From the NCBI GenBank assembly GCA_951406725.2, contig OX597821.1:60946001-61010000 (forward strand): DNA of 64,000 nt, given 5' to 3'. Position numbers and translations under genes: made by a program. The notes beneath the pieces are model-generated. The model worked only from the letters and a program-made list of their open reading frames with translations. It had not been told where the DNA came from and searched no databases. Source of the stretch: Octopus vulgaris. Its lineage: Eukaryota. Shown one piece after another: positions 18,735 to 62,911 of the stretch (position 1 is its first letter; the number at the start of each line of letters is the position of its first letter).

Positions 18735-18965
18735 TACTCTTTTACTTGTTTCAGTCATTTGACTGTGGGCATGCTGGAGCACCGCCTTTTGTCGAGCAAA
18801 TCGACCCCAGGACTTATCCTTTGTAAGCTTAGTACTTATTCTATCGGTCTATTTTGCCGAACCGCTAAGTTATGGGGACGTATAGACACCAGCATCGGTT
18901 GTCAAGCAATGTTAAGAGGACAAACACACACACACAAACATATACACACATACACACCTACACAC

Positions 18966-19020
<55 letters not shown>

Positions 19021-19125
19021 CACATATATACATATATACGACGGGCATCTTTCAGTTTCCGTCTTCCAAATCTACTCACAAGGCTTTGGTCGGCCCGAGA
19101 CTATAGTAGAAGACACTTGCCCAAG
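18735..19125 (-). mobile_element. SINE family 2, 5'-truncated
   Basis: Reverse complement of the 16773-17215 family. Confidence 0.85.
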
Positions 19126-22062: not shown

Positions 22063-22094
22063 TTCTTATTATTATTATCATTATTATTATTATT

Positions 22095-23012
22095 CAGTAG
22101 TTTTATTTTTATAGCGTGCTTTCACTTCACTACCGAGCGCAGCTCTGTGTGCCTTAGGTATGTGCTGTGATTTGTTGTGATGCTCTGATGGTTATTGTAT
22201 AGAAAGTGTTCTGCCTAGTAGTGCAATTTTCTGTATGTTATATGTGTTTGTAAGTCCTGGTGTTTTTGTTATGTTTTTGTCTGAATATTTTTTATCATGC
22301 CTAATGCACCTACTATGATAGGAATTGTTTCTGTTTTTAGATTCCACATTCTGGTTACCTCTATTTCCAGGTCTTTGTATTTTGAAAGTTTCTCCATTTC
22401 TTTTAGAGACACGTTGTCAACTGCCGGTATTGATACATCAATTAGAAGGCATTTTTTTCTTCATGATCTCTGACAACTATATCTGGTCTGTTGGCCTTAA
22501 TTTCTCTATCTGTGTGTATCGGCATATCCCAGAGTATGGTTGCTTTCTCGTTTTCTGTGACCTTTTCTGGTGTGTGCCTATACCATCTTTTTTCTGTTGT
22601 TATTCCATAATGTTGGCATAGCTTCCAGTGTATGTAGGTTCCAACTCTGCCATGTCTGTGAATATATTCCTTCTTAGCCAGGACTGGGCAGCCAGAGATA
22701 ATATGATTTATTGTTTCTTGTCCATCTCCACATACTCTGCAGTTACTTGCTATATCTCTTTTCATTACATGTTTTTGGTAATTTCTGGTGGGGAGGCTTT
22801 GGTCTTGTGCTGCAATTAAAAATCCCTCTGTCTCTGCTTTGAGTCCTGAGCTTCTCAATCATTGCTGGGATTTTTCTTTGTCTATTTCTTTTGCGTTTAG
22901 TTTAGTCCATTATTTACCATGAATGGGCTTTTCTTGCCATCGCTTCATGGTTCGTTGCTGTTCTATTTTTAGTTTGGATTTCATTTGTTTTATAGCTTTT
23001 GTTATTTCTTCA

Positions 23013-23044
<32 letters not shown>

Positions 23045-26031
23045 TTCTTCTTCTTCTTCTTCTTCTTCTTCTTCTTCTTCTTCTTCTTCTTCTTCTTCTT
23101 CTTCTTCTTCTTCTTCTTCATATTTATTAGGTGGTATGATTTCTTGTTTGTATTTGTCAGCTTCCTTAAATACTGAGAACAGTTTTTTGTTTTGCTCGTG
23201 TTTTGCCGCTATTTGTATCGGTTTTCCTTCCTTCTGAAGTAGATATGTTTGCAGTCCTTTGGTAGTTATTTTATAGTAGTTTTCCAGCTGTATAAGGTCT
23301 CTACCACCTTCTATACGTTGTATATATAGTCTTTCTATGTCAGATTTTGAGTGATGCATCCTAGATCCTGTCATTATTTTTTCTTGTTTTCCTATCTATT
23401 TTGGTCAGTTCATTTAGTGTCCAGTTAAGGATATTGTAGCTGTAACTTATAACTGGGACAGTTAAAGTGTTGATACCTATTATCTTGTTTTTAGCATTGA
23501 GCTCTGTTTTTAGTATTGATCTAACTCGTCTATAATATTCTTTTTTTATTTTCTCTTTCATTTGTGTGTGTTGTGTCTTATCTAGTTCATGGATTCCTAA
23601 GTATTTGTAAGTTTGGCTTTGGTCTAATTCTTTTATTTCATTGGTTTTATCTAGTGTGATGTTACTACTCTTAACTAGTTTTCCTCTTTTCATGGTTACT
23701 TTGGGGCATTTTTCTAATCCAAATTTCATATCTATTTCTTTGGTAAATCCATGAACTGTCTTTAATAGTGTTTCCAGCTGTTTGTCATTTGCAGCGTATA
23801 GTTTTAGGTCATCCATATATAAAAGGTGGCTAATCGTTTTGCCGTAACCTTTATATCCGCATCCAGTTCTATTTAGCATATCAGATAGAGGTGACAGTGC
23901 CAAGCAGAAAAGGAGTGGAGAGAGCGTGTCTCCCTGGAATATTCCTCTTCTAATGGGGATGGCTTTGGTTTTCATGAGTCCCTCTTTTGTTTGGAGCTGT
24001 AGCACTGTTTGCCATTTATAATTGTTGGTGCTACTTTGTTAATGGCTAGTGTTTCGAGGATCCATGTGTGGGGGATGCTATCAAACGCCTTTTTGTAGTC
24101 GATCCAGGCCATACTGAGGCATTTCTTCTTTCTGTGGCTGTCTTCAGTTATGGCTTTATTAATCAGTAGTTGATCTTTACAGCCATATGAGCCTTTGCGG
24201 CATCCTTTCTGCTCTTCTGGAAACAGTTTGTTTTCGTTCAGGTGCTTGTTCAACCTTTGCGATATCACTGCAGTAAATGCCTTGTACAGTGTAGGGAGAC
24301 AGGTTATTGGTCTGTAGTTTTCTGGTTTTGCTGTCTCATTTGATTTGGGAATTAAGATGGTTTTCCCCTTCGTGAGCCATTCAGGCATTGTCTCTGGCTC
24401 TGCTAGTATGTTGTTAAAGTTTTCAGCCAGCTTTTTGTGCATTCCTGTTAGATATTTCAACCAGAAGTTAGGGATCTTGTCATGCCCAGGTGCCTTCCAG
24501 TTGCTTAGTCTTTGCAGTGCCTGGGTGACCTCTTCAGTTGTTATGGGGGTCCAAAGTTGCTCAGATGCTGAGTTTGTTGTTTTAATACTCCTTTTTTTGG
24601 TTGTTTGTTCGCCGATCATATTTCTCTCCAGAATTCTTCCACTTCTTCTGCCGTTGGTGCTGCAGTGATTTCTATTTTATTTTTGCCAAGTTCTTGGTAG
24701 AACTTTTTGGGGTTGGAGTTGAACTTTTTGTTTTGTTCAAAGAAGCGCTGGCGTTTCTCGTACCTGCAGATCCTTTGTGCTTTGGCAAGGATATATTGTT
24801 TCAGCTTTTCTTTTATCTCAGGTAAATCTTTTTCTGTGATGTTATATTTTCGGAGTATTTTTGTTTTCTTTTTGTTGCTCAGTAGCGTTGATTGTCTACT
24901 GATTTCATTAAGAATCGACTGATTTTTTCTCATTTTTTGTATTTTGTTTTGGATGTTATTTATCCACAGAGTTTGTTTGGGTGGTGGTACTCCTGTTTGG
25001 ATGGGTTTGAGTGAGTATCCAGCTTCTTTTGTGGCTGCAGTGGCTGCTGCATATACTAAGTCATTTAGCTCAGTGATATCACTTTTTGTTTCAGTGGTTA
25101 TTAGTTCCGTGACAGCTAGGTTTATGCTGTTTATAATTGGTGTTGTTGTTTCGTCTATTTTGATTTTTGTGAGGTATGGTCGGTGGTCCAATTTGAGCTC
25201 TGTGGTTTTCAGTTCTTTGATTATTTTACTTTTTATATTATCATAAGCATTAGGCTCCCCTTCGTTGTTTCCAGATTTTAGATTTGTGTCGCTTTCTTTC
25301 TTATTTATATGTTTGTTTGCCGTGTTTTGGCTTGTTGTTTGTCGTGTATTATTATGCATCCTTACGGTCTGGGTTTGTTGTTTTTTTTGTTTACATCGTG
25401 TTTGTTGGGAATGTTACGTTTGTCTTCGTGTTTTACTGTTTCAGTGTTTATATTATTGGGCATTGTTGTGTGGCTTCTATCTACATTTTCCTGGTTTAGT
25501 TTTTCTTTTAGATGTTCTATTTCTATTTCTGATATATTTTGTTTTGCATTGAGAATGTATCTTCGTACGTTAGCTAGTTTAGTAGGGTTCATTGCTGTAT
25601 TAAAGTCTATATTTATGTTATTTTCCTTCCATATTTTATATGTATGTGTTGTTGTGTTTTCATTTTTGGGGTAGAGCACTGCTGTGAAGTATGCGTGTAG
25701 GATAGAAATGTATTCCTCACGTGTCCATTTATGTCTTTTGGGTTTTATTTGCGGGACATGTGGAACAACGTCCGGCCCATTATTTTGACGGTCGTCATTT
25801 TCGTAGGGTACCAGTCCGTTCATTTCTGTTGTCACGTTGTTTTGCACGTGTGGTTTTTCGTACATTTTGTGTTGTAAGTTTAATATACGTACCTCCCGAT
25901 TGTTATTCTTGGGTTGAATAATATCGGTGGTATTTAATTTCTTCGTAGTTCCTTTGTACATGGTGTTTGGGGTCGGGGATGATCTGGTGTTGATTGATCG
26001 TAATGTTCCACGCATGTTTACATGTGTTGCG

Positions 26032-26093
<62 letters not shown>

Positions 26094-26230
26094 GTTGTTG
26101 TTGTTGTTGTTGTTTTACTCATTAGAGCGCTCGGTCCTGTTTGCCTCCGGTAGATTCTGTGAGAGCGGACAGCAGCTTGTTGTCAGAGGTCTCACAGGGT
26201 CTCTTTCCGCACATTTTAAGCTTTGATAAT
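22095..26230 (-). mobile_element. Near full-length R4/Dong-like non-LTR retrotransposon (single ORF, RT + CCHC + restriction-like endonuclease), frameshifted
   Basis: RT motifs NWKAPGHD, NYRPITCL, WIDYKKAFDSIPH, GIFQGDTLSPLLF, HLLYMDDLKL. CRVC...HIISGC zinc knuckle, RH, RPDIV, IIVGALG. ORF broken into 6 or more pieces; 3' end abuts (AAT)n. Confidence 0.95.
23010..23118 (-). repeat. (GAA)n in-frame poly-Glu expansion inside the LINE ORF
   Basis: ~35 GAA units between KY and DEEITK. Confidence 0.95.
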
Positions 26231-29522: not shown

Positions 29523-30240
<718 letters not shown>

Positions 30241-31145
30241 AATAATAATTCGTAATATGCATGCTGAACAGCGAGAATCAAATGACTTGCATATTTGTTC
30301 TTAACACGTCTCGTCCGATTTGGACATTAATAAGCTAATCGATGCTGTATTTTCTCATTGAAGAACCACCTCTCTTTTAAGACGAATGTGCGTTCATAAC
30401 ACACTCGATCCATTAGCTCAAGATGACGCAGGGAAATACGATCTTTTGTTATCGCTGTGTATCGTTAGTTAAAAGCACATTAATGAATTTAACAAGAATT
30501 ATTGGCTCTTGTTATAACCTCAGCAAAGAAATTATTTGCTTATATGTACAGAGATCTACCAACTGATACTAAATTTCCATATGTATGGGGAACAGCTTAA
30601 GTGCAAAAAAATAGCTTGTTCATTCATTCTTAATTCATTAGGGTAGATTCGAACGTGGGAATGTTAATCACTGTTGAATTTTATTTTGTTAACATGCGGT
30701 TAAAAATCTTCGAACACCAAAAAATTGTTTCAAGTATTTTGATGAGATCTGTTATTATATCAGCCTATCTTATATTCTTAAATGCTAATGTGTTCATTCT
30801 ATTCCGTTTTATTCAGGTAGCTGTGTTTTCTTGTTATCGATCCAAATTGTTTTGTTAAACAATATTACGCCGTATGTGTCCAGCTGGTATTCGTTAATCC
30901 TGTTTTCATTTAATTTAAACATGTGGGAAACATTGTTGTAATTATTGAAGCGTTGGCATCTTCAATCATCTACCAAACTTCTACTTTTTATGTACAAACT
31001 CCCATTGAAATGCTTTTGTTGACCGTTAATGCTTTTGTAGCGGTTATTGTTAATTTGTCAATGGTGTTTCAACTTATTTATTTCTACGTCTGTTATTTAG
31101 TTTTCAAGATGTAGCTGCAAATAATTTTACAACCTTATTTTTGCT

Positions 31146-32581: not shown

Positions 32582-33675
32582 AAGAAAGAGAGAGAGAGCA
32601 GATGCGCCTTTGTGTGAGTGTGTGCGTGTGTGTTCATACGCATACTGGGATGCTGTTGAATCTGGGCTGCCATTAATGTAATGTAGTGCAGCTGTTTATA
32701 ACGTGGATGTCTAATTTTTCCTGGACTGTAAGAATATCACGCCTGATGTTTTAATACCATCTCTTGATATCTAGCTCGCTTTAACGAATTTCACTTCGTT
32801 GCATAATTTTTAAACTTGCACCGCACTCACACACTGTACAATTTGCTAGATATTTAAATCGAAAATCTTATCCACTGGAAAAGTTCCATCTCTCTAATAT
32901 CTGTGTACTCATAACCAGTTTCGACTTGATACACACATGCCAGATGCGAACGTACCTTTGGTTGCTTCTAATCCACAAGATTACCGGCCTTGATAATGTC
33001 TCTTCCCTTTCTCTCAACCCACGTACCTCACAACTAGCTCACCAAAATCTTCAGTCATTCTCTCTGCTTCGAATCTTAGTTTCTGGTCTACCGAGATCTA
33101 TTCTTATCTTTGAAAACCTTTCTTCCATACATAAACTACTTGCTTTGATGTCCAGCAATATCCGCTCTTCAGCAAGTAACTCTACCTTTTATTCTTCTTT
33201 AAAGATTCCCAACCGTGTATCGTGCACTTGCAACCTAAACACCAAACGTTGAAATTATTCTCGAAGTAAAACAATATACTAAATTGTTTTTCTTCAACAG
33301 TTAAGAAAACTTATCTTACACGAAGAGAGCATCACCACACCAGACAAACTTTTAATAATCCTGAACAGTACATAACCACAGACGTACTAAACGTTGGTTC
33401 TCACTATAACGACGTTCTGTTGTGACGAAAGCACAATCATAGCATGGCTAGAATCACATCTCGGTGACCAAACTCTTCTCTTCAGAGTTATAAAATACTT
33501 AATCCCACAACAATTATAGGTATTCTACAAAGCACGTAGATTAGACATATTCAGTTGCCTTTACGAATATTTTTGCTTAGATTTTACCATACTGCTTCTC
33601 TATATCAATCGCTTGAATAATTGGTAACGGAATATTTCCACTAGTGATTCAAGAAGTTGTGAGTTTCTAATAATT

Positions 33676-33875
33676 TTTTCTACTCTAGGCAGTAGGCCCG
33701 TAACTTTTGGGGAGGGAACCAGTCTATTAGAGAAAGCCCAGTACGCTACTGGCACTTAATATATCGACCCCGAAAGGATGAAAGGCAAAGTTGAGTTCGG
33801 CGAAATTTGAACTTAAAGGCAGACGAAATACTGCTAAGCATTTCTCCCCGCGTGCTAACGTTTCTGCCAGCTTGT
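33676..33875 (-). mobile_element. SINE family 1
   Basis: ATCGACCCCGAAAGGATGAAAGGCAAAG ... GTGCTAACGTTTCTGCCAGC. Confidence 0.85.
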
Positions 33876-33976
33876 CTACTTCGTCAGTATCTAATAATAC
33901 ATGTAAACTGCAAGTATTGAGAAATACTTCCTTCATTTGTGAAAGCAAGCGCTCACTATATATATATATATATATA

Positions 33977-35779: not shown

Positions 35780-36550
35780 TGGTTTCAAATTTTGGTACAA
35801 GGCCAGCAATTGCTCAACTTGTACTTATTTTATCGACCCAGAAAGGATGAAAGGCAAAGTCTACCTTGGTGGAATTTGAATTCAAAACACGAAGGCGAAC
35901 GAAATGCCGCAAATCATTTTGCCCGGCGTGCTAACGGTTCTGCATCTGACAAAGTACCTTACCCTTCCAGCTCTTTACATTCCGTGTTCAAATTATGCTT
36001 TAGTCAGCTTGCCTTGTATCTCTCTGGGATTACTAAAAGCACCAGTCAACTACTAGGATCGGTTTGATCGGCTATTACTCCTCTCCACAAAATTGCTACC
36101 ATTGCATCTGATTAAAAAGCATTGAAAGCGAAAGATTAGCAGAATCGGTGTCTGACAAAATATCATGTCTTTAGTTACAGCTCTTGACATTCTCAGTTCA
36201 AGTGCTGCTGAGGTCAACTTTGTATTTCATTCTCTTGGCATCGATAAAATAATGTACCAGTCAAATACTATCAACTAATCCCCTCTTCTGAAAAACTGCC
36301 GACCTTGTGCCTAACTTAGAATCCCATGCTGATAGTATTAAGGTGACAGACTGGCAGCGCTATTAGCACGCTGGACAAAATGCTTAACGGCTTTTCGTAG
36401 GTCTTTACGTTCTGAGTTCAAATTCCACCGAGCTCGACTTTGCCATTCATTCTTTCGAGGTCGATGAAATAAATATAAGTCGAGCCCTGCGGTTGATGTG
36501 GTCGACACACTCCAAATCTAAAATTTCAGGCTTTGTGTCTAAATTAGAAA
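35780..36550. mobile_element. SINE family 1 cluster: one minus copy, then about three degenerate plus copies head to tail
   Basis: Repeated GTTCAAAT B-box, TTTCAT..TT..G..TCGATAAAAT core and TTGTG.CTAA tails. Confidence 0.7.
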
Positions 36551-39149
36551 TAATTAATTGTGGCATCATTGTGTGATGGATGGTAGCTGACTGTCCAACA
36601 AAATACCTCGCAGCAATATTTTTTATAAGGGTAGCGTTTCCATGAAATCAGAAAATAATATAATCATCCTATGAAGCACTTTTAATTTGTTTGACCCAGA
36701 CTAACACATTTATTCATTTTGATAACTAATTTTTATGTATTATCATTAAATCGAGATTTGTTCTAATTCAATGATCACAATTATTTTTCATTGATTTCTT
36801 TCTAATTTATGTATCTGAAAGAACTCTTCCATTTTTATAATGGATCAGTTCTGAGTAGAAGTAACAATAGTCAACTAGTGTTTAGGCCACTATAAGCTAT
36901 GGTAATAAAAGATTAAGTGATGAGAAGTGGAATAACAAGATCAAAACCGTTATTTGTACGTGCGGATATTATGACAGATATATAAAGTTTCTAAAATTAA
37001 AGATAATAGCCATAATTATTTGCTATAATGCATTATCAATGATAGAGAATTATTAAAGTGATGTTTTTTTCTAAATTTGAAGACTATTTTATGATCTGTT
37101 ATAGAGAAACAACTTCCAATAAATACTTAATTTGATTAATTAAATTATTATTATATTTATTGCATCCAATAAATGCTTAATTTGAAGTTACACACTCATG
37201 CCTGTTTAGATGTTTCTAAACTTAGCGGTTCAGCATAAAGTGATAATAAAATAAGTGCTAGATTTTAAAATAAGCAGTGAATTTTAATGTGGCTCCCCAG
37301 CATGGCTGCAGTCTAATTACTGAAACAAAAGAATAAAGGAATAAGCAATTAATGTTGAAAATAGATTCAGCAAACCTAATGCTTAGTAGGTTTGACCAAT
37401 TTGTATAACATTTTATGTATTCGTGATTTTACATTTAAAGCTATAAGACACAAAATATTTTTAAATTGAACGAGGGAATAAAAGTACCAATTAAGAAAAA
37501 TTACGTAGAAAAGTGAGTTCTAAAAATTTTAAACCCTTGAAGCATTATCTAGTTTCTTTTTTTTTCTCTTTTTTTAGAAATCATTCGGAAGTTAATCTGC
37601 AATTATACATACATTGTGGAGTAACGCAATATCGCGTCTCAGAATTAATGCAAAGATTTAAATGAATGCCAACCCTCATCCATGCTAACAAAATGTGGAT
37701 TAGATATTTATTCAGTGTGAAAGTGGTTTAAGTGTACTCGAAGTGAATTCCTTAATCTAAATTTTATGTTTCGCTGCTCCGAGACAAACATTTGCGAACG
37801 TCTTACTAGCTAAAATTTGGTTAAATTTAAGGAAGATTATCCAATTTTTTTTAAAAAAGGTTGTCCAATTTTAAATTCTTTTTCTTACAAACTGAAAGTG
37901 AAAGTAGTTTCTCCACTTTAGATGTAATTAACAAACATTGGAAAATATTGGATGTCAAGGAAGAGTTGAGACTAGAATTAACTTCGTTTTCATTTGTACA
38001 ACAAACATGTGATAGAAAGCATCATCATCTGTATAAAATAATCTTTCAGATATTTTTCGCATTCTACAATTTGCTCATTTGTTTACATAAATAAATAAAT
38101 GTTTATTTTCTCATAAATTGCACCTTTGTTCAATAATTTGTGAAATTTTAGAGCATTTAGTATTTGGTTATTATTAACCACCTGGTCAAAAAGTTTATGG
38201 ATGTCATACAAGTATATAATAAAACAGCAATTCACAAAGGGAGGAAGATATGGTTAGAGTTCTCAAAGAATAAGTAAATATTGTACTATTTGCTCAAAGA
38301 ATCGTTTCCAACGATAACGTGTCCCTGAAAGAATTGACAAAATCGAAAGTTTTTTGGAAACAGACACAGTGTCTATAACTATACCTCGTAAATGATGATA
38401 AAATGAACAGAAAATACCTAATTATAACTCGTGGACTGACATATACACAAAGCATGGAAATAATATAACGACTGCAAACAAAGGGCATCAAATACTTTCA
38501 ACACTGTAAAGAAAACGCTAAATCAAAAGCAAAACACTTTGCTCGATTTTGTTGTGAGAGCACAGAATATATAAAAAATGCCGAGGAATTCCAACCATGT
38601 TTCGTTGTTCGCTGCCTCAACAGCTCCTTTATAGGATCCAGTGGCTAAAGACTTCATCAGGAGGAGCCATGTCGGGTTTCGGCCCCTATTCCTCTACCGC
38701 TTTCGACCCGGCACCCCATCCCACTTTCGGAGGTTTCTTCAGCTCTGGTGTTGAGTGCATTTCTTCTTTCACCTTTTTTTCTTTTGTTCCTTGATTTCTT
38801 CGATGCAGCGTCAACGAATGTCAGCGGGCGACTGACCATCCCGCCAAATTTCCCTTTAAATACTCGCCCGTAGGCTCCAGCAGCCAAGACCAGCTAACTT
38901 TCACGTGACATTGTCTAAGCTTCAACTGATCAATGAAGGGGAAGGGCGCGTAATTTTAGCCCGTGTCCTCTCTAAACCTGCCTTCCAACAGTGTCGTGTT
39001 AATTTCAGTTCTAGTAGCCAGAGCCTACCAGCTCTTTGGTGGTAGAAGCCTTCGAACCAGGAGGAGAGTGCGCTATGAACAAGATCGATACCTTGGCCCA
39101 CCTGTCAATCAGCGATACTGCTTAAGTGTTAACTAGCCTCACCTCGCGA

Positions 39150-40050: not shown

Positions 40051-40222
40051 TTATGAAAGCTGTATGTGACCGGCCAACAACCATCGCAACTATATCTTAT
40101 ACTATACTCATGAATGTTTTATCAAATAAAGAATTTTTCTTGCACCCCATTTCACTCTTTCAAAATAAAACTCAGCCTATTTACATTATATACATTTGAC
40201 GGATATTTGTTCTCATCTTGTT

Positions 40223-40268
40223 AACACAATGTTTCGGCTGATATACACTCCAGCCTTCATCAGGTGTC
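40223..40268 (-). ncRNA. Minimal type I hammerhead motif (family B, copy 1) in a repeat at 40178-40320
   Basis: GACAC-CUGAUGA-A-GGCUG(GAGUGUAUAU)CAGCC-GAAA-CA-UU-GUGUU. Confidence 0.8.
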
Positions 40269-40344
40269 TTGGGAAAATTTCGAACCTGGGTTCTCATTCC
40301 TAAGGTATTTTTTGATGTTATTATTATTATTATTATTATTATTA

Positions 40345-40695
40345 TATGTTTGACTTTTGCTTTACATTTACTTAAGCTGGCTCCAGGTCTCACACAGAGA
40401 CCTCAAGAGCAACAAGTTGGAAGTTCATGTTGGTGTTATGCCTAGGGTGCCATATATTTGGTTTTGTACTTAGTGTTGTACTAGTAAATGCCTAAAAAAT
40501 CATACAAAAATTATGTCTGTTTTAAAACTTGAGATTACAAAGAAAGTATTTTGCGTAGGATATGAGCAGTTCCCATGAGCACTATCTTTTGAATTTCTGC
40601 CATTTTGGGGTTTCCTGGTATCTGAGTTAGGCAGCAATCAGCCCCTTTTGCTATCATTCCCAGGGCACCTATGACAACAAGTATTGTTTTAGTTT
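40345..40695 (-). mobile_element. 5'-truncated R4/Dong-like LINE end, flanked on both sides by (TAA)n
   Basis: KTILVVIGALGMIAKG...IPGNPKMAEIQKIVLMGTAHILRKIL; a different family from 22095-26230. Confidence 0.8.
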
Positions 40696-42587: not shown

Positions 42588-44243
42588 CTGTGTTTTTGTA
42601 TAAGTGCGTGTGTGTATACACACACATATACAAAATAGATACACGATTTGTTCAATTCCTATCCTTCTAATGGAAGTCGATTAATGATATTATTCAAAGA
42701 ATCTCAAATTTAAACAAAAGTCTAATTACGTTTCACACAACAACCTAGTGTGTTGTTTATATGATGGTTAAATGTGTAGTTTTCTGTTGAAGTTGTTTGA
42801 CGCATGAATAGGTATTTATATAATGCATTATTATTTTTTTTTTCTGGTGGGAAAATATTGCAATTGTTGTAAAATCACTGTTGATTTAAATGGGATTAAA
42901 AGATATCCTGTTTTAAGTGCGTGTCTGTTTTTAATCTCTTAAGCTGATAAAGTAATTCTCGAATGAGACGATCTAATATTCTAAAAGAGTGTACGTATGA
43001 GAATATCTAATAATATTATAGCATACTGAACGTCTGTGTTTTTTATACTATGACACAAATGAATGTAATTATAGAAACATAGCTTGAATACTTAGAAGGC
43101 AAAACACTTTATTTGAAACAAATACATATAAAAAAAACGAAGCCAATAAAGTATTTCGTTTCAAACGTTATGGAAAATTGCATCGTAGGTAATTGGTAAA
43201 CTGAATGAAAAAAACTAATAAACGAAAGAAGACTACAAAAATTATTGTGTTATGTGTAAAGTCTGGAACGCATCGTATTTGTTATTTTTGGAAAACAAAA
43301 TCGTAGCTTAGTTTAAGGGGAAATAAAAAGGCTGAAAATGTCTCCTATCACTTAGAAAAGCATATATGCATCACTGCAGACCCATAAGCAGAGAATCATA
43401 CGATTCTCTGATGATATGAAACGTCGATTCAAATCTTATAGGTAGTGTTTAATTCTGAAAGCGTCCACAAGAAGAATTTCTTTTATTGGTGAAATATTTG
43501 ATAAAATGTGCAAAATAGTTGCGAGAGATATTCTAGTATGGTAGAACGTCTGTTGCAACAAAAACCGAGAAATATCACCTCAAGCTCGGGAAAAGTATGG
43601 AAGTGAGTCCAATGTTTTGGAAAATTGGTTTTATTAAAATACCTAAGATTATATATTTGCTAAATTCGGTAGTTCTAGTAAAATTTGTAGTAGTTGAATC
43701 TACTTATGTAGGGTGACAGCCTAATAGGAGAAAATCGTAGAAAGGAGAGGAATAATTGAAATGAAATTTCATAATCATATATCGAGACTATAACTAACAG
43801 CCAAAATGTATGAACTTCGCCCATTGCATGGAAATAGTTTAGACTTTCTGAATTATCGATTCATACGAAAATATCAGTACATACAATTATTTTACATATG
43901 AAATAGCCAGACACTGAAAAAAAATTTCTAATAACGCCTCGACAGTGGTGACCAAATCAAATTTAAAAATAAACACGCCATTTTCATTACATTCAGTACA
44001 CCTTGTTTCAGATAGATTCTTGTTTATAACTCAACATGTTTAAATACTAATGTCATTTGATCAATATTGTATAAGCGAATTATCATTTCTTGTAACCGTC
44101 ACATATGCTGAGTTATTAACACAGAGACGCATCTCCATATAGGCTCAACAGTTATCTCTGAGTACGTTTTATTGAAGGCTTTCCTTGTAATTATTTACAT
44201 TATTTACATTTGACGGATATTTCTCTTCATCTTGTTTGTTGTT

Positions 44244-44289
44244 AACAAAATATTTCGGCTGATATACCCTCCAGCCTTCATCAGGTGTC
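44244..44289 (-). ncRNA. Minimal type I hammerhead motif (family B, copy 2)
   Basis: GACAC-CUGAUGA-A-GGCUG...CAGCC-GAAA-UA-UU-UUGUU; the first stem I pair is mismatched. Confidence 0.7.
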
Positions 44290-44381
44290 TTGGGTAAATT
44301 TCGAACCTAGGTTCATATTCCTCAGGTATTTTTCGATGTTATTACTATTATTATTCAGGTCACTGCCTGGAATCGAACTCG

Positions 44382-44431
<50 letters not shown>

Positions 44432-44484
44432 GCAACACCGAAAAATACCTTCTGAAGGAGAACCCAGGTTTGCAATTTTCCCAA

Positions 44485-44531
44485 GACACCTGATGAAGGC
44501 TTGTAGGGTATATCAGCCGAAACATTGTGTT
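44485..44531 (+). ncRNA. Minimal type I hammerhead motif (family B, copy 3)
   Basis: GACAC-CUGAUGA-A-GGCU...AGCC-GAAA-CA-UU-GUGUU. Confidence 0.8.
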
Positions 44532-45520
44532 AATAAACAAGATGAGGACAAATATCCATCAAATGTAAATAATGTACATAATTCCTCATCTCTTAAATAT
44601 AAAACTGTTTCCTTGTAATCTTTATCAATTTATGTTGCAAGATCCCCGATGAGAAATTGTGTGGTGAAACAGATATTGTTGTATTTCGGGTTGGTCATTT
44701 TTACTTATATATTTCTTTTTGCCAGATAAACACACGCACTATATATTTGTTCTTCACTCATTTATTAGTGTTCATATTTTTCTTTTTTTATTTTAACTCA
44801 TGTCCATTGTCCGGAAATCTTATGTCACACATCTGTGACCTCTTCAGCAACACTTTTCGTTTTCTTGCTCCACTTACTGCATTGTGTTCTAAGATATGTG
44901 TTTGCGTCCGTGTATGTGTGTATGTGTATGGTTATGGGTGTGAAGGTGTTTGTGTGTGTGTGTCATTGTTCTTAGCCGCATCCTCTCACTCCATTGTGCT
45001 GCTGCTATCCTGAAACCCGAAAATTTGGTACAGCTCTCTTTCCTTGTAATATTATTTATGTTCTGTTTGTTGGAATCAATGAGCAACGACATCAATATGA
45101 ATGTTGTTCATGATATCAGTATCCAGTACTTACATAATTTGCTACACTCGTACACTGTACATATATATTTCTCTGTGGAGAAATGGACGTCTGTATCAAT
45201 TTGGATAGCATTAGGAGCAATGAACTGGAAAAGAAAACGGGGTACAATAAAAGATCATTGTAGCAATCTATGCCAAATGAGCATACAAATCTTTGCTCTT
45301 CTTTTAGGACATATTTTAGTGTAACTATATAAGAAAAACACAAACATGCACACATATTTACACTCAAATACACACACACACACACACATGCACATACACA
45401 CATGTATAATGTATGTCATTCTCTTCTCTTAAATTGATTCAAAGTTTACAATATTTTAATCTCGAATTTAAAACGAACTTATAATTTGTTTTCAATCATT
45501 CTTACTTTTTGAATATTGTT

Positions 45521-47484: not shown

Positions 47485-47980
47485 AACGTGCACGGCTCAC
47501 TGGTTAGAGCGTCGGACTTACGAGTTCGATTCTCGGACTGGGCTGTGTGTTGTGTTCTTGAGCGAGACACTTTATTTTGTGTTGCTCTAGTTCATTCAGG
47601 TGTCGAAATTAGTTACTACGTCACTGGTACTAAACTGTATCGGCCTTTGTCTTTCCCCTGGAGAACATCAGTGGCGTGGAGAGAGGAAAATAGTCTCCCA
47701 TAAACAACCTTGCCTTGACCTGTACCTCACATACATACACACAAAATTATAAGTCCTCTTTAAATATGTGTGTGTGTGTGTGTTTCTCCTCCCAACATTG
47801 CTTGACAACCGATGCTGGTGTGTTTTCGTCCCCGTATCTTAGCGGTTCAGCAAAAGAGACCGACAGAATAAGTACTAGGCTTACAAAGAATAAGTCCTAG
47901 GGTCGATTTGCTCGACTAAAGGCGGCGCTCCAGCATGGCCGCAGTTAAATGACAGATGCAATTAAAATAATAAAAGAATA
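47485..47980 (+). mobile_element. SINE family 3-like head region followed by a SINE family 2 3' half
   Basis: GGCTCACTGGTTAGAGCG...GAGTTCGATTC A/B boxes; family 2 tail from 47770. Confidence 0.7.
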
Positions 47981-48139
47981 TATTTGGACAAAGACAAAGG
48001 GAAGGGGGTAAAACCTGTGTCTGTATGTGTACATAATTGGAGCATATTTGTAAAGCTTCGCATATGTTAATAGTCTCTTTAGTGATTTGTCTTGCTTTTT
48101 ACATTTTTACATTTGATGTGTTTATGTGTTTTAAGGATG

Positions 48140-49418
48140 TGAAACCCACCGTTTAAGCAAATTTCTAGACATCTTACGGAAACCCTTGCTGAAATACATC
48201 AAAAGTCTCATTAGAAATGATTTAGACATGCTAGAACCCCAACCAAAAACAATTAATGAAGAGGCAATATTGGTTACCCTCGAAGTTATCAATCTTTACA
48301 CCAGCATCCCCCATGACTATGGAATAAAATCAATTAAATTCTGGTTGGAAAAGTACCCCGAAGTACTCCCGGAACTTATAAACCAGATCTTTATTATTGA
48401 ATCCTTAAGATTTATACTTCAGAACAATTATTTCCTATATGATGACACATACTATCGACATTATTGCGGAATTGCGATGGAAACGAAAGCAGCCCCTGTT
48501 CTTGCGGACCTAATAATGGGTTATTTTGAATTCACCTGATATGAAGTATCTCTTCAGAAATATGGTTACCCATTTTACCTCTACATAAGAGAAAAGTGGA
48601 AGAGATACCTGGATGACTGCTTTATAATTTGGAAAGAGATATCGACACACTTTTGGATTTCAAATCGACACTAAATGATATAAATAGTAACATTCAATTC
48701 ACAATGGACAACTCCCATTTTTGGACATCATGATAAAAAAGTCAACAATCAAATCATAACTGACATTTATTATAAACCAACTGATTCAAAACATTATCTT
48801 AATAATGGCAAAAGGGATTTGCACAATAGTGTCTGATAGAACAACTCTGGACCTTCGTTTTCAAGACCTCAAAACAACGCTTATTAAAAGACAATATCCA
48901 CCCTCACTTATCGACGAGGGAATTAAACGTGCCAAAAAACACCAAGAACAACAAAACAGAATACCACACCTCATCTCAAAACATTACTATTTATATCAAC
49001 ACACAACCCCAGAAACAATGAGACCTTGAACACTACTGTGCAAAATCTTCTTTTACTAACTAGAGATCCAAAAATGAACGACATCCTGAAAACACACAAA
49101 CTCATCAAATATAAAAAGCAAGACAAATCACTAAAGAGACTACTAACAAATGCGAAGCTTTACAAAACAACCACGAAACCAACAATTGAAAAATATTGAC
49201 GACCAAACTGTGGAACCTGCTCCAACCGACTTGAAGGCTCGGATTTACATTTCAAACAAGGACAGAGGTTCAGAATTAAAGCTAGTTTCACTTGTGCCTC
49301 TGAAAACCTAATTTATGTAATAACCTGCTCGGATGGTGGGAACAACTATATGGCACAGACGAGTATGACTTTGAGAAAGAGAACCACTCTACATAAAGAG
49401 CAAATCCGTCCCCCGCAA
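48140..49418 (+). mobile_element. Penelope-like retroelement RT + GIY-YIG, pseudogenised and truncated
   Basis: LVTLEVINLYTSIPH, ILQNNYF..DDTYY...GIAM, WKRYLDDCFIIW, YYKPTD, FTCASENLIYVITC..GNNY..QT; stops and frameshifts. Confidence 0.9.
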
Positions 49419-50012
49419 ATTATAATTTATGCGTCTCGAAACAAACCGATAGAAATTTCTAAAATTCGTTATTACCATAATATAATGGTTAATTGACAAT
49501 TTCTGTCTTTTTTTTTTTCGGCATATTTGGCCTTAGAATTTTTTTTTTGCCCTTATATTGTAAATTATTTATAAATGTAACCTTTAAGGGTATTTTTTGA
49601 TATGCTGGCCATTGATGAAATTTTTTTTCCCGAAAAAAAATTTATCCTACATTAATTATAAATTGTGTTCACTTCCGGATTCTATCAAATCACACGTGCC
49701 TCGAGATGTGCCGAAGATTTTCTATTTTGGATATATTTGGGGTACTTAGGTCTGCTCAGGACTTGGTGTTTACTTTTTCCGTGGGTATGAGTAAGTATTT
49801 CACTTATATCTCGCGTATTTGCCGCTGACGAGGAGAAAATTCTTATGAATTAACTCCGAAATTGGTCCAATACGGTAATAACGAATTTTAAAAAAAATCC
49901 TATCGGTTTGTTTCGAAACGCATAAATTATAATGGTTAATTGACAATTTCTGTCTTTTTGTTCGGCATATTTGGCATTAGAATTTTTCTTTTGACCTTAT
50001 ATTGTAAATTAT
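49419..50012 (+). mobile_element. Retrozyme / Penelope pseudo-LTR-like unit (~447-nt period) with 5' inversion
   Basis: Direct repeats 49481-49568 and 49928-50012; 49419-49476 is the reverse complement of 49874-49933; contains an HHR. Confidence 0.8.
49819..49878 (+). ncRNA. Type I hammerhead ribozyme with intact catalytic core (family C)
   Basis: UUGCCG-CUGACGA-GGAG(AA-AAUUC-UUAU-GAAUU-AA)CUCC-GAA-AUUG(GUC)CAAU-A-CGGUAA. All core nucleotides and three stems present; predicted cleavage after AUA at 49872. Confidence 0.88.
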
Positions 50013-51315
50013 ATATATATATACATACATATATATACATAACAACGTATATATTTATATGTATATACATATTATTATACACATATACCTATACATACTG
50101 TTAGACACATACACACACGCACATACAACCTCAATCATAACTGTCATACGCATGCGAATATGACCTGGGCAAATGTATCACATTTTCTATAATAAGTTTA
50201 GGTTGCTATGTAGTTCTCGAGCTGACATAGTCACTTGAACATCCAGCCCTTGGCCCTGGAAAAAATTCGGAATGCAACATATAGAAGGAAACATGATTGT
50301 AATAGCTATAGTCTAGTAGTAATTTTCAGCTGAAAGGCGTGAAGCAATATGAAAGGAGGTGCTTTGGGGGAGGTGGGAGTGCATCGTACTATTGGTCTTT
50401 ACACGCCCTCCGAGATTAATCGGATTAATGTCCTTAACTTTCGTGTTAATCTGTTGCAAACTGGAGACTGCAGGAAAGACACCTGTTGTGACGAAATTCT
50501 AGATGGCCGACATCTTAGGAAGAATAGATTTCATGAAGTAGTAGAAGTAGTTGGTGGGGAAACTGGATAAGGGTTGATCATGCTTTGGGTGATGAGAAGA
50601 GAAAATCCTTAGTAACGTTAATACGTGGAAAAACATCTCCAGTTTTAAAAGCCTGTTTAATAGCGATAGGAAAGATAGAAAGAGAAGACAGCTTAATACG
50701 TCAACTAGTACCTCTGTAGGAACTCCATAAAATGTTTGTGTGTAGCAGTGGTACCGTTCAAAATGTGAGGCCGGTCCTCTAATATGGGCTTGTGACGAGG
50801 TGCTCTAGAATTAAAGGCAGCGAACATCACCCGCATTTGGGCTAATGTTTATGATTGCACATACTCCACCAACATGCTCAAATAAGTAGGATGATTAACC
50901 AGTACAATTTCATCTTGGAAAACAAATAACGATATGTTATATTTATGATGTTGGGTCTTACAATTCCTTCACTGTGTACAAGTGTTCTGTACGCATTGGC
51001 CTAAATAAATTTAAGGTTGGCATCTGTCGCATCATTCATTTTTACTTGAAGATCTGTGAAAGTTATGGACCCGGCCCTTTACATTTGATTCCTTATATAA
51101 ATCAATAGATGTATGTATTTATGTATAGATGCATGAGATAAAAATCAATCATAGAACAGGACTTATATTTCTGATATTCATTCTGATGGTGGGTTGTATT
51201 TTAAACACACCGACGGCTGTTATTTGAACCGAGAACGAAAGCTGATGCAGATGAACACTATAGTTCTGCTTCACGTTTGCTTCGCAAAACAACATCAGCA
51301 ATAATAATAATAATG

Positions 51316-52859: not shown

Positions 52860-53194
52860 ACTTTTTCGAGCTTTAAACTAATACATCTGTTTGTTGCCTA
52901 TACCACCTGTTTTGTCTTTTGTTTTTTTAGTGAATTCTCCCTATATAAATATATATATACACACCTTATGTTTTTTAATGCCCTGTACCCATATATGCAT
53001 GTATATATACATATATATGTAGATATGTAAATATATGTGTATATATATATATATATATATGTGTGTGTATGCGAACATATATGTGTATATGTGTGTGTGT
53101 ATATATATATGTATATATGTATATATGTATGTATGTATGTGTATATATCTATATATCTATATATATATATATATATATATAGCATATGTATTTC

Positions 53195-53942
53195 TTTTAT
53201 TTCTTTTACGTGTTTCAGTTATTTGACTGCAGCCAGGCTGGAGCATTGCCTTTAGTCAAATACATCGACCGCAGGACATATTCTTTGTAAGCCTAGTACT
53301 TGTTCTATCGGACTCTTCTACGGAACCGCTAAGTTACGGGGACGTAAACACACCAACACCAGTTGTCAAACAATGTGGCGGGACAAATACAGAAACATAC
53401 GCAAATATACACATATGTATAGAAACACACACACACCTATATATATATATATACAGACAGACACACTTACACACACAACGGACATTCTTCAGTTTCCGTC
53501 TACACAAGGCTTTGGTCGGCCCGAGGCTATAGTAGAAAGTACTTGCCCAAGGTGTCACACAGTGAGACTGAACTCCCAACCATGTGATTGAGAAGCAAGC
53601 TTCTTACCACATACCCACGTCTGGGTTGCGGTTTCAACATGGATTTCCTGTTTGATACTACACTAACTATTCGTAGCCCCGGTACTGGACGTTTACTCTG
53701 TCTTTACCCTTTTACTTGTTTCAGTCATTTGACTGTGGCCACGCTGGAGCACCGACTTTAGTCGAGCAAATCGACCTCAGGATATATTCTTTGGATGCCT
53801 AGTACTTATTCTATCGGTGTCTTTTGCCGAACCGCTAAGTTACTGGGACGTAAACACACCAGCATCGGTTGTCAAGCGATGTTGAGGGTGGGGGACAAAC
53901 ACAGACACACAAACATATACACACACATACATACATACATAC

Positions 53943-53987
<45 letters not shown>

Positions 53988-54146
53988 TACGACGGTCTTT
54001 CAGTTTCCGCCTACCAAATCCACTCACAAGGCTTTGGTCGGCCCGAGGCTATAGTAGAAGACACTTGCCCAAGATGCCGCGCAGTGGGACTGAATCCGGA
54101 TCCATGTGGTTGGTAAGGAAGCTACTTACCACATAGCCACTCCTGA
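53195..54146 (-). mobile_element. Two tandem SINE family 2 copies (53195-53615, 53700-54146)
   Basis: Both are reverse complements of the 16773-17215 family, including heads. Confidence 0.88.
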
Positions 54147-57126
54147 GTGATTTGTTTTAGGCCATGGATTTAGGGTACGTCTACTGCGTGAACAGAATCA
54201 CTGGCACGTTGGATGTCCGATATCTTACTGACTTGGTCATGTATAGCTTTCAAAAGCATCGATGACAAGTCTTCTCACTACATATTTTAGGCTTACTGTG
54301 TAGAAGCAATATTTTATATGTAGGAATTTGTTTCTAAAGTGTTTTGATAATGTCTATGAAGCGATACTGATATATTTATTATTATTCCTCGAGTCGTTGA
54401 TAAGTTTATTGGCAATGTGTCAGAAATGCCCACTGAATAATAAGTGGCGTAATGCAAAGCTTCTTGGCTTGGAATGTTATCAATATCGCAAGGTCTAATT
54501 CACAGAAGAACAACTATTGCTTTCCGTACAAATCCATTGTAATATTATTTCAAGAAATATATATTTACATAAAGAAACAGGCCTGCGGCACATGCATTTA
54601 AACATTTATCGAATAATTTGTTTAATCCCAACGAAAACATACAACAGGCTGTAAATACGTCAAACTAGATTTAACATGAAATACATGAACGTTTGTTGGT
54701 AAAATCAGTAAACTTCTATTGTGTATAACTTTCACTCTCTGCATGAACAGTAATGGATGTGTGGAACAGTATATGATTGAAATGCACTAATACATAATAT
54801 TTGTGATAATCGTAATTCTTTTATATGAATATAGCTACGCCAACTAATATTTAACTAATTTATAGAACTCAGACGCTAATACTATACTCGAAATGTTGAA
54901 CAATTCCTGATAAGTGAATCATTAAGTAACTGTTTTATATATTTATAACTATTCAGTTGCTTTTCACTAGAATTTATTGCCGATTGAATACGTTTTATTG
55001 CATCTAATTTAGTGTAGTAGGTCACAAGTCTTAGTCATTCAATCTTGTGTATTTTATGAACCAAAACATCATATTAGATCTGTTTAATTTCTGTGACAGG
55101 CGGAATTAATGTTGTTATAATGAAAGGCTAAGATGTTAGTAGCTTAGTTTCAGAGCGTGAACAATTAAATATTATAATGAAAAGAATATATAGTATATAC
55201 TCTAAAATAAAATACCATCTAAAGCAAAGCATTCTCCTGGAGAACGAAAGACTGAAGAAAAATTCCTAAGGAATTATATCTCACCTATTTTTGAAGCTGT
55301 AAAATTAGAATATGTACATTCCATATACATAGCACATGTACATGCTATATACATGCTATATAGCATATTTACATGCTATATACATGTACATATTGCACAC
55401 ATACATGTTTATATCCACACGCTTACAAAACACCTAGTTTTTTGTAAGCCACCCCACCGCATTCCACTTTCTGTCTCTTATTCTTTTCGGTCCAGTTACT
55501 TCAAAATCCCAGCCATAAGAAGGAGATCAGCCTTTTTCTATTTTCTATTTTTATTAACCTGTAAATTGTAAATCTTCAACAGTTCTTTTCCTTTTATATT
55601 TCGTTGTACATCCAAAAATTTTGCTGGCCGTTGGCGTTCAGGATTTCTTTACAAAAACCTGCAATCACTCCGTGTGATGGAGTAATAAGATCCTGACTTT
55701 TCTTATTTCAGTCTGGTTATTCACCTTGTAGAATCAATTTACCTTGCGTCCTAATTTCCATTTAGATCATAGAAAGGGACGGTCGACTTACTATTCTCTT
55801 TGGGAAAAATCGGAGACAATGCTCGGTAGAAAAACCAACAACCGTACTTTATTTTTATGGCGCCTTCCAAGATTTTCGACGCAATAAAAGGAAAGTAGTA
55901 CAGGAAATCAGGGTACCTGAAAAATATTATTTCCTTTCACAAGATATTCTTGTTATAGTTTGTTCAGGCATAAAATCTTCTGAATCCTAAGCAAGGTTAT
56001 GTCTTGTTTTCTGTATTGTTTGCTCTTTATTGTGTCACTGTTATCTTTGGCTGTATTTTCAAAGACTTGATTAAGGCAATAAGATTTATATTTTGTAAAG
56101 CGGAGGTTTATTTAATCACCCTGATTCAAAGTCATTCTTCTGTTTAAGGCAAATTGTTTTTGCTATTTACTATTTACTGATGATACAGCACTTATGGACA
56201 TTGTCGTTTGATGATGCTCAATTGATTGTGAAATGTTTCTTGTATGTCGCTGAAACCTTTGATCGCACCATGAACTATAGAAGAAAACGAACATAATTCA
56301 CCAACAAAAACCAGTCCCTAAGATAATGAAAGAGCTAAAAATCACTCGTCCGTTTGTAATTTTCTTACAAACCACATACAAGTGGATGGCCAAGATACAA
56401 AATAAGCAAAATCTTTACTTTATTTCAGTAGAATAAAGAATACATGAGCTGCTCTTTCAGATGAAATAAAAATAAGTTATCAAAAGCAACTGCCTCTTAT
56501 GGTCACTTGCAGAACATTTTCTGGAACAAAAGTGAAGGAAATGATAGAATTACATTTAGTATTTTCTTTAACTTTATTATTCGGTTCATTTGAATCCGTC
56601 ACAATGAATACACAATGTATATAATGCATTATGTCAGATAACCATGTTGTTTTCCATGTAAACCATGGCTTGAGCAGGAAAATCCATAATCATCCCACAA
56701 AATCGGGTATATAGAGTACCAATATGGTAATACTAAGAGTAGAAAGTCTAAGTATACATGGATTCGAGTAACCATGGATGGAAGTGCAAGGCCATATGAT
56801 CAACAACTTTAGGTGACGATCTGAAACACGTACACACTTCCACCCATTCTCTATGCCTACGAGGTGAGGACAGCTCATCCTTTTTTGATCTGTATCGAGT
56901 AATACAAACAAAAGAAGAGCGGTCCCGTTCATCCTGTCGTCGTTCTTCTTATTTATTGATACTGTTGATGTTGTCCTTCTTGTTTTTACTGTTCCGGTAG
57001 TTAAATTATAATGTCACTTCGTTTGTATATTCACGTGCGATCCTACAAACTTCGTATATACTATACAGAACATTCCTTCGAACTTCCTATAAGTATATTG
57101 TTGATTTCCCTTATTAGCGTCACTTA

Positions 57127-57569
57127 GGCGATGAGATGGCAGAATCATGAGCACACCGAACAAAATGCTTAGCGGCATGTCATCCGTCCTTACGTTCTGA
57201 GTTCAAATTCCGCCGATGTCGACTTTGCCTTTCATCATTTCGTGGTTGATAAAACAAATACCACTTATGCACTGGAATCGATATAATCGACTGCCTTCTC
57301 TCTAACAATTTTAGGTTTTGTGCCTATAGTAGAAAAAATTATTAGCCTCACTAAGGCGATGAGATGGCAGAATTGTTGGCACTCTGGACAAGCCGTTTTA
57401 CAGCATTTCGTCCGTCTTTATGTTCTGAGTTCAAATTCCGCCGAAGTCGACTCTACCTTTCATCCTTTCGGGAGCGATAAAATAAGTACCAGTCAAATAT
57501 TTGGGTCTGTGCAATTGACTCCCCACCCCTTCAAACACTGCTGTGTTTGTGCTAAAATTCAAACCAATA
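57127..57569 (+). mobile_element. Two SINE family 1 copies head to tail, delimited by three copies of a 14-bp site
   Basis: GGCGATGAGATGGCAGAAT heads at 57127 and 57355; ATTAGCGTCACTTA at 57113 and 57570, variant ATTAGCCTCACTAA at 57341. Confidence 0.85.
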
Positions 57570-60843: not shown

Positions 60844-61718
60844 CAGGGTGCGGTGAATAAACTGTCGTCTAAATTACTTAAAAATGAAAATAATACTGAC
60901 ATCTCATTTTAACAGATATATTTACCAAAATTACATAAAAATGTCTTGAAATACTGAAGAGTAAATTCCTTCAATAAAATCGCCATAGGCTTCAACCACA
61001 GCCTCCAGACAACTTCGGAATCTCCTGCAACTCTTCTGAAAGGTCTCCTTGTTTCAGTTGGTGAATACTGCCATAATCCTTGCCTTCAGTTCATCTTTGG
61101 TGTTACAAGGAGTCTTGTTGGTCTTTTGCACAACTGCGCCCCACAAATAATAATGAAGGGGGTTGCAGTCTGGGTAGTTAGGTGACCAGATGTTAGGGGT
61201 GATGTGATTGCAAAAATTGCCTGACAGCCATGACTGGGTTCTCCTGCTTGTGTGGCATGGTGCAGAGACCTGTTGCCAGACACAGAGTCTTCCAGCAGCC
61301 ACCCTCTTGACCCAGGCCAGCACTACCTCCTCCAGGGACTTGATGTAGGCCTCTGTGTTGAGTCTGAGTCCATGTGGGAAGATGAATGGAGGCATAAAGA
61401 CGCCATCACTAGTAACCATTCCAAATACCACGATGTTGACTGGATGTATGATTTTTATCATTCTCGATACATGTCGTCAGATTGCACTGGCCACAGATTG
61501 ACACCCAGACACTCTGAAATATTCCTACTGGAGCTTCTGGCGCAAATGTTATGCAGTGCAGGACGCCGTTTCCAAATTGCGTCATGGTGCTTTTTTCTCA
61601 TAAACAGATGGTGCCCAACTGACCCTTCTATACTGTGTGGTCGACAAACACAAAACAAACAACGCGCATGCGCAAAATTAAAAGTATAAAATGGCGACAA
61701 TTTACCCATCGCAGCTTG
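60844..61718 (-). mobile_element. maT/DD37D-like Tc1-mariner element, internally deleted
   Basis: TA-flanked imperfect TIRs CAGGGTGCGGTGAATAAACTGTCG / CGACAATTTACCCATCGCAGCTTG; WQQVSAPCHTS and WSPNYPDCNPLHYYLWG (compare WPPNSPDLNPLDY). Confidence 0.85.
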
Positions 61719-62477: not shown

Positions 62478-62639
62478 TTATGAGAAACGTCATTTGTGAC
62501 CCACGAGGAAATGTACTAGTTAATATCAGTAAGCATTTTACCTGTCAACATACCTTATTAATTTAAAAATCTATTTCAAAACAAGGAGTTGCTCTGTTAC
62601 TGTTTCTCCCTCTCTATTTGTATATATATCTATTTTATT

Positions 62640-62830
62640 CTTTTTCTTGTTTCAGTCATTTGAATGTGGCCGTGATGGAGCACCGCCTGCAGTCGAGCAA
62701 ATCGACATCATGACTTATTCTTTGCGAGCCTAGTACTTATTCTATCGGGATCTATTGCCGAACCACTAAATTACGGGGATGTAAACACACCAGCATCGAT
62801 TGTCAAGCGATGTTGGGGGCAAACACAGAC
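62640..62830 (-). mobile_element. SINE family 2 3' half
   Basis: CTTGTTTCAGTCATTTGA...GTAAACACACCAGCATCG. Confidence 0.85.
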
Positions 62831-62833
62831 ACA

Positions 62834-62911
<78 letters not shown>

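Follow-up and report, generated by a model that had tools for sequence, protein, structure and literature searches.

The 416-bp unit described here lies in a window of 64 kb (the whole stretch of DNA analysed, AT-rich and microsatellite-rich animal DNA) and was very probably produced by a single insertion event of the type made by Penelope-like elements (PLEs). Its inverted layout is a known kind of PLE footprint, and the unit is likely an old insertion that is inert today. The architecture is mostly known; the one possible novelty, a tRNA-derived head on the RNA from which it was copied, is unproven. Coordinates are collected in Table 1, and comparisons with published elements refer to the accessible portions of the papers cited.

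Table 1 Positions of the cassette, its parts and related elements in the 64-kb window
Feature	Position	Strand	Basis or remarks
Target-site copy 1, TTTCCTTGTAAT	44180..44191	+	left flank single-copy
Left arm, tail-less pLTR-like 3′ module whose 3′ end adjoins the target-site duplication	44192..44340	−	arm alignment; loose contig ends at 44190
Left minimal hammerhead motif	44245..44288	−	core intact; stem I closing pair broken
(AAT)n linker at 5′ side of arm	44338..44355	−	in 3/3 window copies; loose ends at 44355 run on as ATT repeats
tRNA-3′-half-like piece, 5′-truncated: T-arm with B-box, 7-nt acceptor 3′ strand, discriminator and 2 nt	44356..44382	−	pattern, coverage
(AAT)16, linker of right unit	44383..44430	+	head-to-head junction about 44383-44385
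Right arm, pLTR-like module	44431..44583	+	arm alignment
Right minimal hammerhead motif	44486..44530	+	core intact; 1 nt inserted in stem II; palindrome of helix III decayed (ACAU where the family has ACGU)
PLE-type tail, right arm only, ending at family-wide terminus	44584..44607	+	loose ends at 44608
Target-site copy 2	44608..44619	+	exact 12-mer
Second insert, 419 bp, different high-copy family, decayed hammerhead-like motif from 44847 (−)	44620..45038	−	contig depth, family end
Target-site copy 3, then ATT and single-copy DNA	45039..45050	+	exact 12-mer; depth
Solo arm, tail-less, same family, 5′ end in its own (AAT)n	40178..40345	−	arm alignment
tRNA-like SINE family	29560-30250, 33667-33898, 35811-36556, 57111-57560		
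Second tRNA-like SINE family	16773-17234, 18730-19126, 53172-54148, 62607-62911		

Structure of the cassette

The unit is bounded by two exact copies of the 12-mer TTTCCTTGTAAT, any given 12-mer being expected by chance at about 3e-7 per position; a third exact copy follows at 45039, and there is no fourth in the 64-kb window. From left to right, a minus-strand arm is followed by an (ATT)n linker and a unique piece of 27 nt, and after (AAT)16 come the plus-strand arm and its tail. The two arms, of about 150 bp, align in inverted orientation with 130 identities, 19 mismatches and 4 gap columns (85% alike), and their hammerhead cores lie on opposite strands. The tail, present on the right arm alone, measures 24 nt, or 27 nt if the ATT common to the left arm and the target-site duplication is left out of the arm. 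The solo arm runs from 40178 to 40334 and is followed by (ATT)n; a check of its flanks for a target-site duplication of 7 bp or longer gave none. The initial annotation had described the inverted arms with a minimal hammerhead motif each, the direct repeats 416 bp apart, the (AAT)n of the spacer, a tail of about 24 nt on one side and a solo arm near 40178, and all of these were recovered here.

The solo arm shares 129/147 and 132/152 identities with the two cassette arms. In the 147 ungapped columns of the three-way alignment, private changes number 11 in the right arm, 9 in the left and 7 in the solo copy (three of these seven falling beyond the end of the solo arm), and no polarisable derived change common to both cassette arms was found among them. 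The arms (130/153) are no closer to one another than to the solo copy, so that a single template gains no support from this comparison, as is expected for an old insert. The substitutions that separate the arms (13%), together with the three 12-mers, which imply that the site was cut more than once, would suit separate insertions of the two arms at a target hotspot. However, the space between the arms contains no copy of the target, the 3′ ends of both arms coincide with termini used throughout the family and directly adjoin the target-site duplication, and a head-to-head pair is the usual product of a single PLE insertion (PMC8557442, PMC3846280); we therefore regard two separate insertions as very unlikely. 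The cassette shows just this combination of a head-to-head inverted copy and a short target-site duplication. An ORF search of the 416-bp unit returned nothing, and in particular not the single ORF with PLE reverse transcriptase (RT) and GIY-YIG parts that marks an autonomous EN+ PLE; because it is without an ORF, the unit was classed as PLE-mobilised and not as an autonomous PLE.

A high-copy family with two 3′ ends

Contigs from 4 of 24 public DNA runs (organisms C, D, E and F) were aligned to positions 43600-45200. The left flank is single-copy, with a depth of 8–33 against 1e5–1e6 in the arm, and the bin with the hammerhead reached 122,000–179,000 times the depth of the left flank in the four runs; such depth is not a copy number and gives only an order of magnitude (~100,000-fold). 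Loose contig ends were concentrated at 44608, the end of the tail (351, 239, 278 and 284 contigs in the four runs), and at the tail-less terminus 44190 (252, 183, 194 and 233 contigs), with a further 100–122 contigs in three of the runs ending at 44582, the tail-less end of the right arm. Among the loose ends listed, family copies run beyond both termini into unrelated AT-rich flanks. In all four runs, the family thus has two discrete 3′ ends, about 24 nt apart and bounding an optional tail, and these are the ends used by the right and the left arm of the cassette. Reverse transcription of the Anolis PLE has two start sites, one on either side of the tail (PMC11167929); the match between these and the two ends of the family points to a PLE-type insertion. 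In many family copies, the tail-less 3′ end (44190 and 44582) has one 9-nt repeat unit more than in the window arms, which suggests a length variant or a subfamily.

A 3′ poly(A) or microsatellite tail, as would mark a LINE-mobilised SINE, is absent: the 3′ end of the cassette consists of the hammerhead arm and tail, and the (AAT)n sits on the 5′ side. The proposal in the initial annotation that Penelope-type machinery had integrated both arms at once is supported by this absence together with the minimal hammerhead, the spacing of the two family ends and the position of both cassette ends directly against the target-site duplication. Another possible explanation is a MITE or foldback DNA transposon with the hammerhead motif in its terminal inverted repeats by chance, for which the long inverted arms, the short non-coding spacer and the target-site duplication could be cited. 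Nevertheless, only one of the outer ends has the 24-nt tail, the arm also occurs alone, and contigs from elsewhere join one arm to unrelated flank, so that this explanation is largely refuted and hardly credible.

Hammerhead motifs and their predicted folding

CUGAUGA..GAAA cores with a 6-bp stem II were located at 44490 (+), at 44284 (−) and, in the solo arm, at 40263 (−), each arm following the pattern ACAC-CUGAUGA-A-GGCU..AGCC-GAAA-NNUU-stem I. In other family copies, among the loose ends listed, GAA is followed by the palindromic ACGUU. With these family letters, the bulged base, G10.1-C11.1, the 6-bp stem II and the palindromic ACGU all agree with the PLE consensus in the accessible part of PMC4209133, and the arm carries a minimal type I hammerhead in a terminal repeat, as PLEs do. 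In the window, helix III reads ACAUU in the right and solo arms and AUAUU in the left arm, i.e. all three hammerheads are decayed. No match was obtained in the window with Rfam at the gathering threshold, and Rfam scans by E-value gave neither a hammerhead nor a tRNA but only sub-threshold matches to plant miRNA hairpins, which are caused by the inverted repeat.

The inverted pair places one sense copy of the hammerhead on each strand. The whole-cassette RNA was predicted to fold as one long hairpin (−189 and −203 kcal/mol), with a stem II probability of 0 on both strands; the pairing of the two arms in read-through RNA is thus predicted to hide the hammerheads. Helices I and III are not intact in the window copies either, helix III being mismatched in the right and solo arms and stem I broken in the left. 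According to PMC4209133, minimal motifs are inactive as monomers and weak as dimers. Working ribozymes at the cassette locus would be unlikely on either strand, because the copies are decayed and a masking hairpin is predicted. The initial annotation placed a ribozyme on each strand; this is correct for the motif, which does occur on both, but not for its function as judged from the decay and the predicted masking. The locus is likely inert because its ribozymes are decayed, it has no A-box and, if read through, it would yield at most an RNA hairpin of about 150 bp.

A probable second insertion at the same target

The right flank of the cassette is not unique; the initial annotation had overlooked the third 12-mer and the high-copy insert that adjoins the cassette. 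Depth is 10^2–10^5 from 44627 to about 45040 and single-copy past the third 12-mer, and 44627 is also where the family sequence ends in two records of other loci. In the hammerhead-like motif of this second insert (CUGAAGA-G-6-bp stem II-AUAA, minus strand, 44847) two core As are missing; at 44822, ~99% of the family depth has the other base, which brings one of them back. A relaxed hammerhead scan was rejected as stand-alone proof for this insert, with 0–3 matches per simulated window. The resulting layout is target, cassette, target, insert, target, and it is likely that two PLE-type events took place at the same 12-nt stagger, one of them by a different hammerhead family. The Anolis PLE protein nicks and extends both strands and prefers ATT (PMC11167929), the motif found directly after target copy 3, and PLEs are said to insert beside earlier PLE copies (PMC6765202). 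Before the insertions, the original site would have read as the 12-mer followed by ATT. Target copies 1 and 3 also agree at the 13th base, which would fit an older age of the second insert.

Age of the insertion

In C, E and F, contigs orthologous to the left flank pass from unique DNA into 24–28 letters of the left arm and end there; these letters are fewer than the 31 of the bridging rule applied, and they match the arm and not the right flank. Organism D gave no coverage at the left junction. Flank differences from the window amount to 39/612 letters in E and 39/607 in F. Since the contigs enter arm letters and not the right flank, the left junction is likely older than the splits from C, E and F (E and F being ~6% diverged), and no empty-site joint appeared among the 15 joints listed of 381. 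The arms diverge from the three-way majority by 0.064 and 0.079, about twice the per-lineage divergence of the flank, so that an arm identity of 85% is no argument against one event; at such divergence, a 12-mer is computed to stay unchanged about 19% of the time. The arm divergence tentatively matches an Octopus SINE/LINE burst at distance 0.065 (PMC13282606). Target copy 1 lacks one base, at 44183, in the contigs of E and F that cover the orthologous locus, and these two organisms have many flank substitutions in common.

The tRNA-like piece in the spacer

On the minus strand, the 27-nt piece consists of a 5-nt stem, a TTCGATT loop, a 5-nt stem, a 7-nt acceptor strand, a discriminator and two bases, after which (AAT)n begins; the non-repetitive sequence stops 2 nt past the expected tRNA position 73. 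It contains the B-box GTTCGATTCC at 44378-44369 (−). Five strict B-box sites occur on both strands of the 64-kb window, giving a chance of about 0.0008 for one within 27 nt (calculated post hoc). The piece thus combines a B-box with the geometry of a tRNA 3′ half, although its T-stem has 3/5 pairs and neither ARAGORN nor Rfam called a tRNA there. The T-arm with B-box claimed for the spacer at the outset is to that extent upheld in its B-box and its tRNA-like end, with the weak stem and the missing calls on the other side, and a tRNA derivation of the piece is favoured as judged from its letters.

The depth of the piece was at least ~3,900–6,900 times single copy in the four runs (a rough figure, from which an upper bound for the microsatellite had been subtracted). 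As this depth is high in all four runs, the piece is likely family sequence and not captured host DNA. Its link to the arm at an independent locus comes from a contig (record 6 of X15, organism E) that continues from the arm through (ATT)n to 44367, 12 letters into the piece, a length below the 31-letter bridging rule. Positions 44371-44443 were left out of the contig mapping as repeat. Pattern scans of viral contigs, prokaryote genomes and plasmids gave no match, and the scan of metagenome contigs gave one chance match inside a bacterial-looking ORF.

The proposal that the source RNA was tRNA-headed is therefore kept in part: the B-box, the tRNA-end geometry and the high coverage speak for it, but it is favoured at most, the arm being linked to the piece by the 12 letters of one contig. 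A tRNA-headed, non-autonomous source mobilised by a PLE protein is a tentative reading, to which we give a little less than an even chance. Octopus copies of the family may continue into a fuller tRNA-like head, which we take as a lead only. In the window, neither an A-box nor a full tRNA was seen, and none of the three copies (0/3) is a full-length tRNA-headed unit. On the sense strand, the hammerhead is closely preceded by TTTT in the right and solo arms (2/3) but not in the left, and such a run, as a possible Pol III stop, would count mildly against read-through by Pol III.

These same observations bear on a different source, namely an autonomous Penelope/Neptune RNA that had captured a tRNA-derived piece in its pLTR or 3′ UTR, the cassette being its 5′-truncated end. 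The lack of full tRNA-headed units and the T4 run would be expected from such a source; PLE copies are mostly 5′-truncated with an adjacent inverted copy (PMC8557442); and the three-arm majority seems, by eye, open in one frame through the tail, pLTRs being known to hold the start of the ORF (PMC3846280). Against it, a module of 175 nt with ~1e5-fold coverage is in keeping with a short non-autonomous element and, more weakly, protein searches with the arm reading frames found no relative, eukaryotic repeat ORFs being poorly represented in them. On balance, an autonomous source is rather unlikely.

Alternatively, the B-box piece could come from a short tRNA SINE of its own with an (AAT)n end, or could match by chance, and could have become joined to the arm here or at a small number of loci, through template switching or insertion beside the microsatellite. 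Other tRNA-like SINE families with (AAT)n ends do occur in the window, and short contigs break at the microsatellite, so that coverage of the piece alone is no proof of linkage. However, no SINE of the window has the piece, an independent locus shows the order arm, (ATT)n and piece, and (AAT)n stands at the 5′ side of the arm in 3/3 window copies, which leaves such a joining decidedly improbable. Other SINE heads of the window were considered as a source of the B-box piece and rejected, none of them having it.

The window has two abundant tRNA-like SINE families, some copies being tandem dimers, and neither carries the B-box piece of the cassette. In appearance, the SINE families of the window resemble those of Octopus. 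A further SINE-like head at 47494-47720 has A-box and B-box-like motifs (B-box at 47524) and 4/5 pairs in its T-stem.

Neighbouring elements

Neither the window nor the protein searches yielded an autonomous partner. The Penelope of the window at 48.0–50.0 kb was rejected as such, its best match being 20 nt (E 0.08) and its hammerhead-like end being different. This decayed, 5′-truncated element (48047-50023) retains RT and GIY-YIG fragments with many frameshifts; the RT-like fragment had a feature score of 0.93 to a cluster with 19% RVT_1, and GIY-YIG was matched at E 0.027. It also shows an inverted piece (48047-48140/49081-49166), a direct repeat (49476-49579/49921-50023) and a hammerhead-like motif of its own at 49825. 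At 21674-26114 (−) there are broken ORFs of a non-LTR retrotransposon with RT and restriction-like endonuclease motifs recognised by eye; the 5′ end of this element abuts an (ATT)n run, and it is interrupted by a long (TTC)n. Fragments at 18109-18483 and 61054-61476 resemble, by eye, the C-termini of Tc1/mariner transposases.

A model of the insertion

Overall, the explanation that we consider best, at about even weight, is that two 5′-truncated copies were made in one PLE RT/GIY-YIG event from RNA that was likely tRNA-headed. The RNA would have had the layout [tRNA-like head]-(AAU)n-arm with hammerhead-tail. The endonuclease would nick both strands, 12 nt apart, and each 3′-OH would prime reverse transcription on one or two RNAs, the cDNA of the right arm starting at the end of the tail and that of the left arm at an inner site 24 nt upstream. 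Both cDNAs would abort early, the first within (AAU)n or the tRNA part and the other in whichever of these remains, and would then be joined head to head at the AAT overlap, with fill-in creating the target-site duplication. Reuse of the same 12-nt cut by the second hammerhead family (44620-45038) would account for the three 12-mers. The further step, with less support than the others, is that a tRNA-derived Pol III head stood at the start of the RNA, which would have made use of a borrowed PLE protein.

Comparison with known elements

The insertion units of EN+ PLEs (Penelope/Poseidon, Neptune; PMC3846280, PMC8557442, PMC11167929) have in common with the cassette head-to-head pLTRs, a tail at one end, a short target-site duplication, an AT-rich target, 5′ truncation and a hammerhead in the pLTR; in rotifer PLEs, inverted pLTRs and a one-sided tail come with target-site duplications of 8–10 bp (PMC3846280), and PMC8557442 gives such an arrangement as the general structure of PLEs. 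The cassette differs from these units in having no ORF, in its tail of 24–27 nt (theirs being 30–40) and in the tRNA-3′-half-like piece and (AAT)n upstream of the pLTR. In Schistosoma mansoni, PLE minimal hammerheads form opposite-strand pairs 100–700 bp apart (PMC4209133), with the same motif and the same inverted pairing as in the cassette, where the cores are 206 bp apart. In contrast to those pairs, the cassette is delimited by a target-site duplication and tail and is decayed; no tRNA part is described in the accessible portion of that source.

The Sm-alpha/Sj-alpha elements of Schistosoma (PMC6765202) and the non-LTR retrozymes (PMC7229834) are likewise short, non-coding, high-copy and hammerhead-bearing, Sm-alpha has a Pol III promoter upstream of the ribozyme (PMC6765202), and PLEs have been proposed as mobilisers of retrozymes (PMC7229834, PMC6765202). 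However, Sm-alpha and the retrozymes are head-to-tail tandems with a canonical type I hammerhead, whereas the cassette is inverted, with a minimal PLE hammerhead and a PLE tail, so that its tie to PLEs can be read from its ends, and does not belong with them. Cassandra, Helenus and Ajax (PMC10886601) likewise combine a tRNA- or 5S-derived piece with the terminal repeat of a non-LINE partner, Helenus and Ajax using LTR machinery. MRC1 is a nonautonomous PLE of the Chlamys kind for which the accessible text of PMC8557442 mentions no tRNA head, and Chlamys PLEs are without canonical hammerheads. In cephalopods, SINEs, Penelope and hammerheads are all abundant (PMC8967140, PMC6962438).

Full-text searches of open-access papers showed no tRNA-headed element with PLE ends; the family may be recorded in Repbase, Dfam or SINEBase, in subscription papers or in the curated O. 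vulgaris consensus library on Zenodo (PMC13282606). Words of the arm had no relevant match in the text of open-access papers and none in the supplements of PMC8557442, PMC4209133 (without file 1) and PMC9115989 (without files 5-7 and the transcript FASTA).

Implications

It is possible, at somewhat under even chances, that the family is a true SINE of ~100,000 copies, composed of a Pol III tRNA head, (AAT)n and a Penelope pLTR and moved by RT/GIY-YIG, and that two families at the same 12-nt stagger reveal a defined nick geometry of PLEs. If the tRNA head is true, this would be a SINE riding on Penelope machinery instead of that of a LINE, and it would fill a gap among the small-RNA-derived parasites, of which SINEs depend on LINEs and Cassandra/Helenus on LTR elements. 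In that case, the ~1e5 short copies would also be a data set for the priming sites, tail choice, nick spacing and twin priming of PLEs, and an RNA of ~250 nt would be a minimal candidate substrate for an in-vitro PLE system. The triple 12-mer, for its part, is a direct test case for the reuse of targets by PLE endonucleases.
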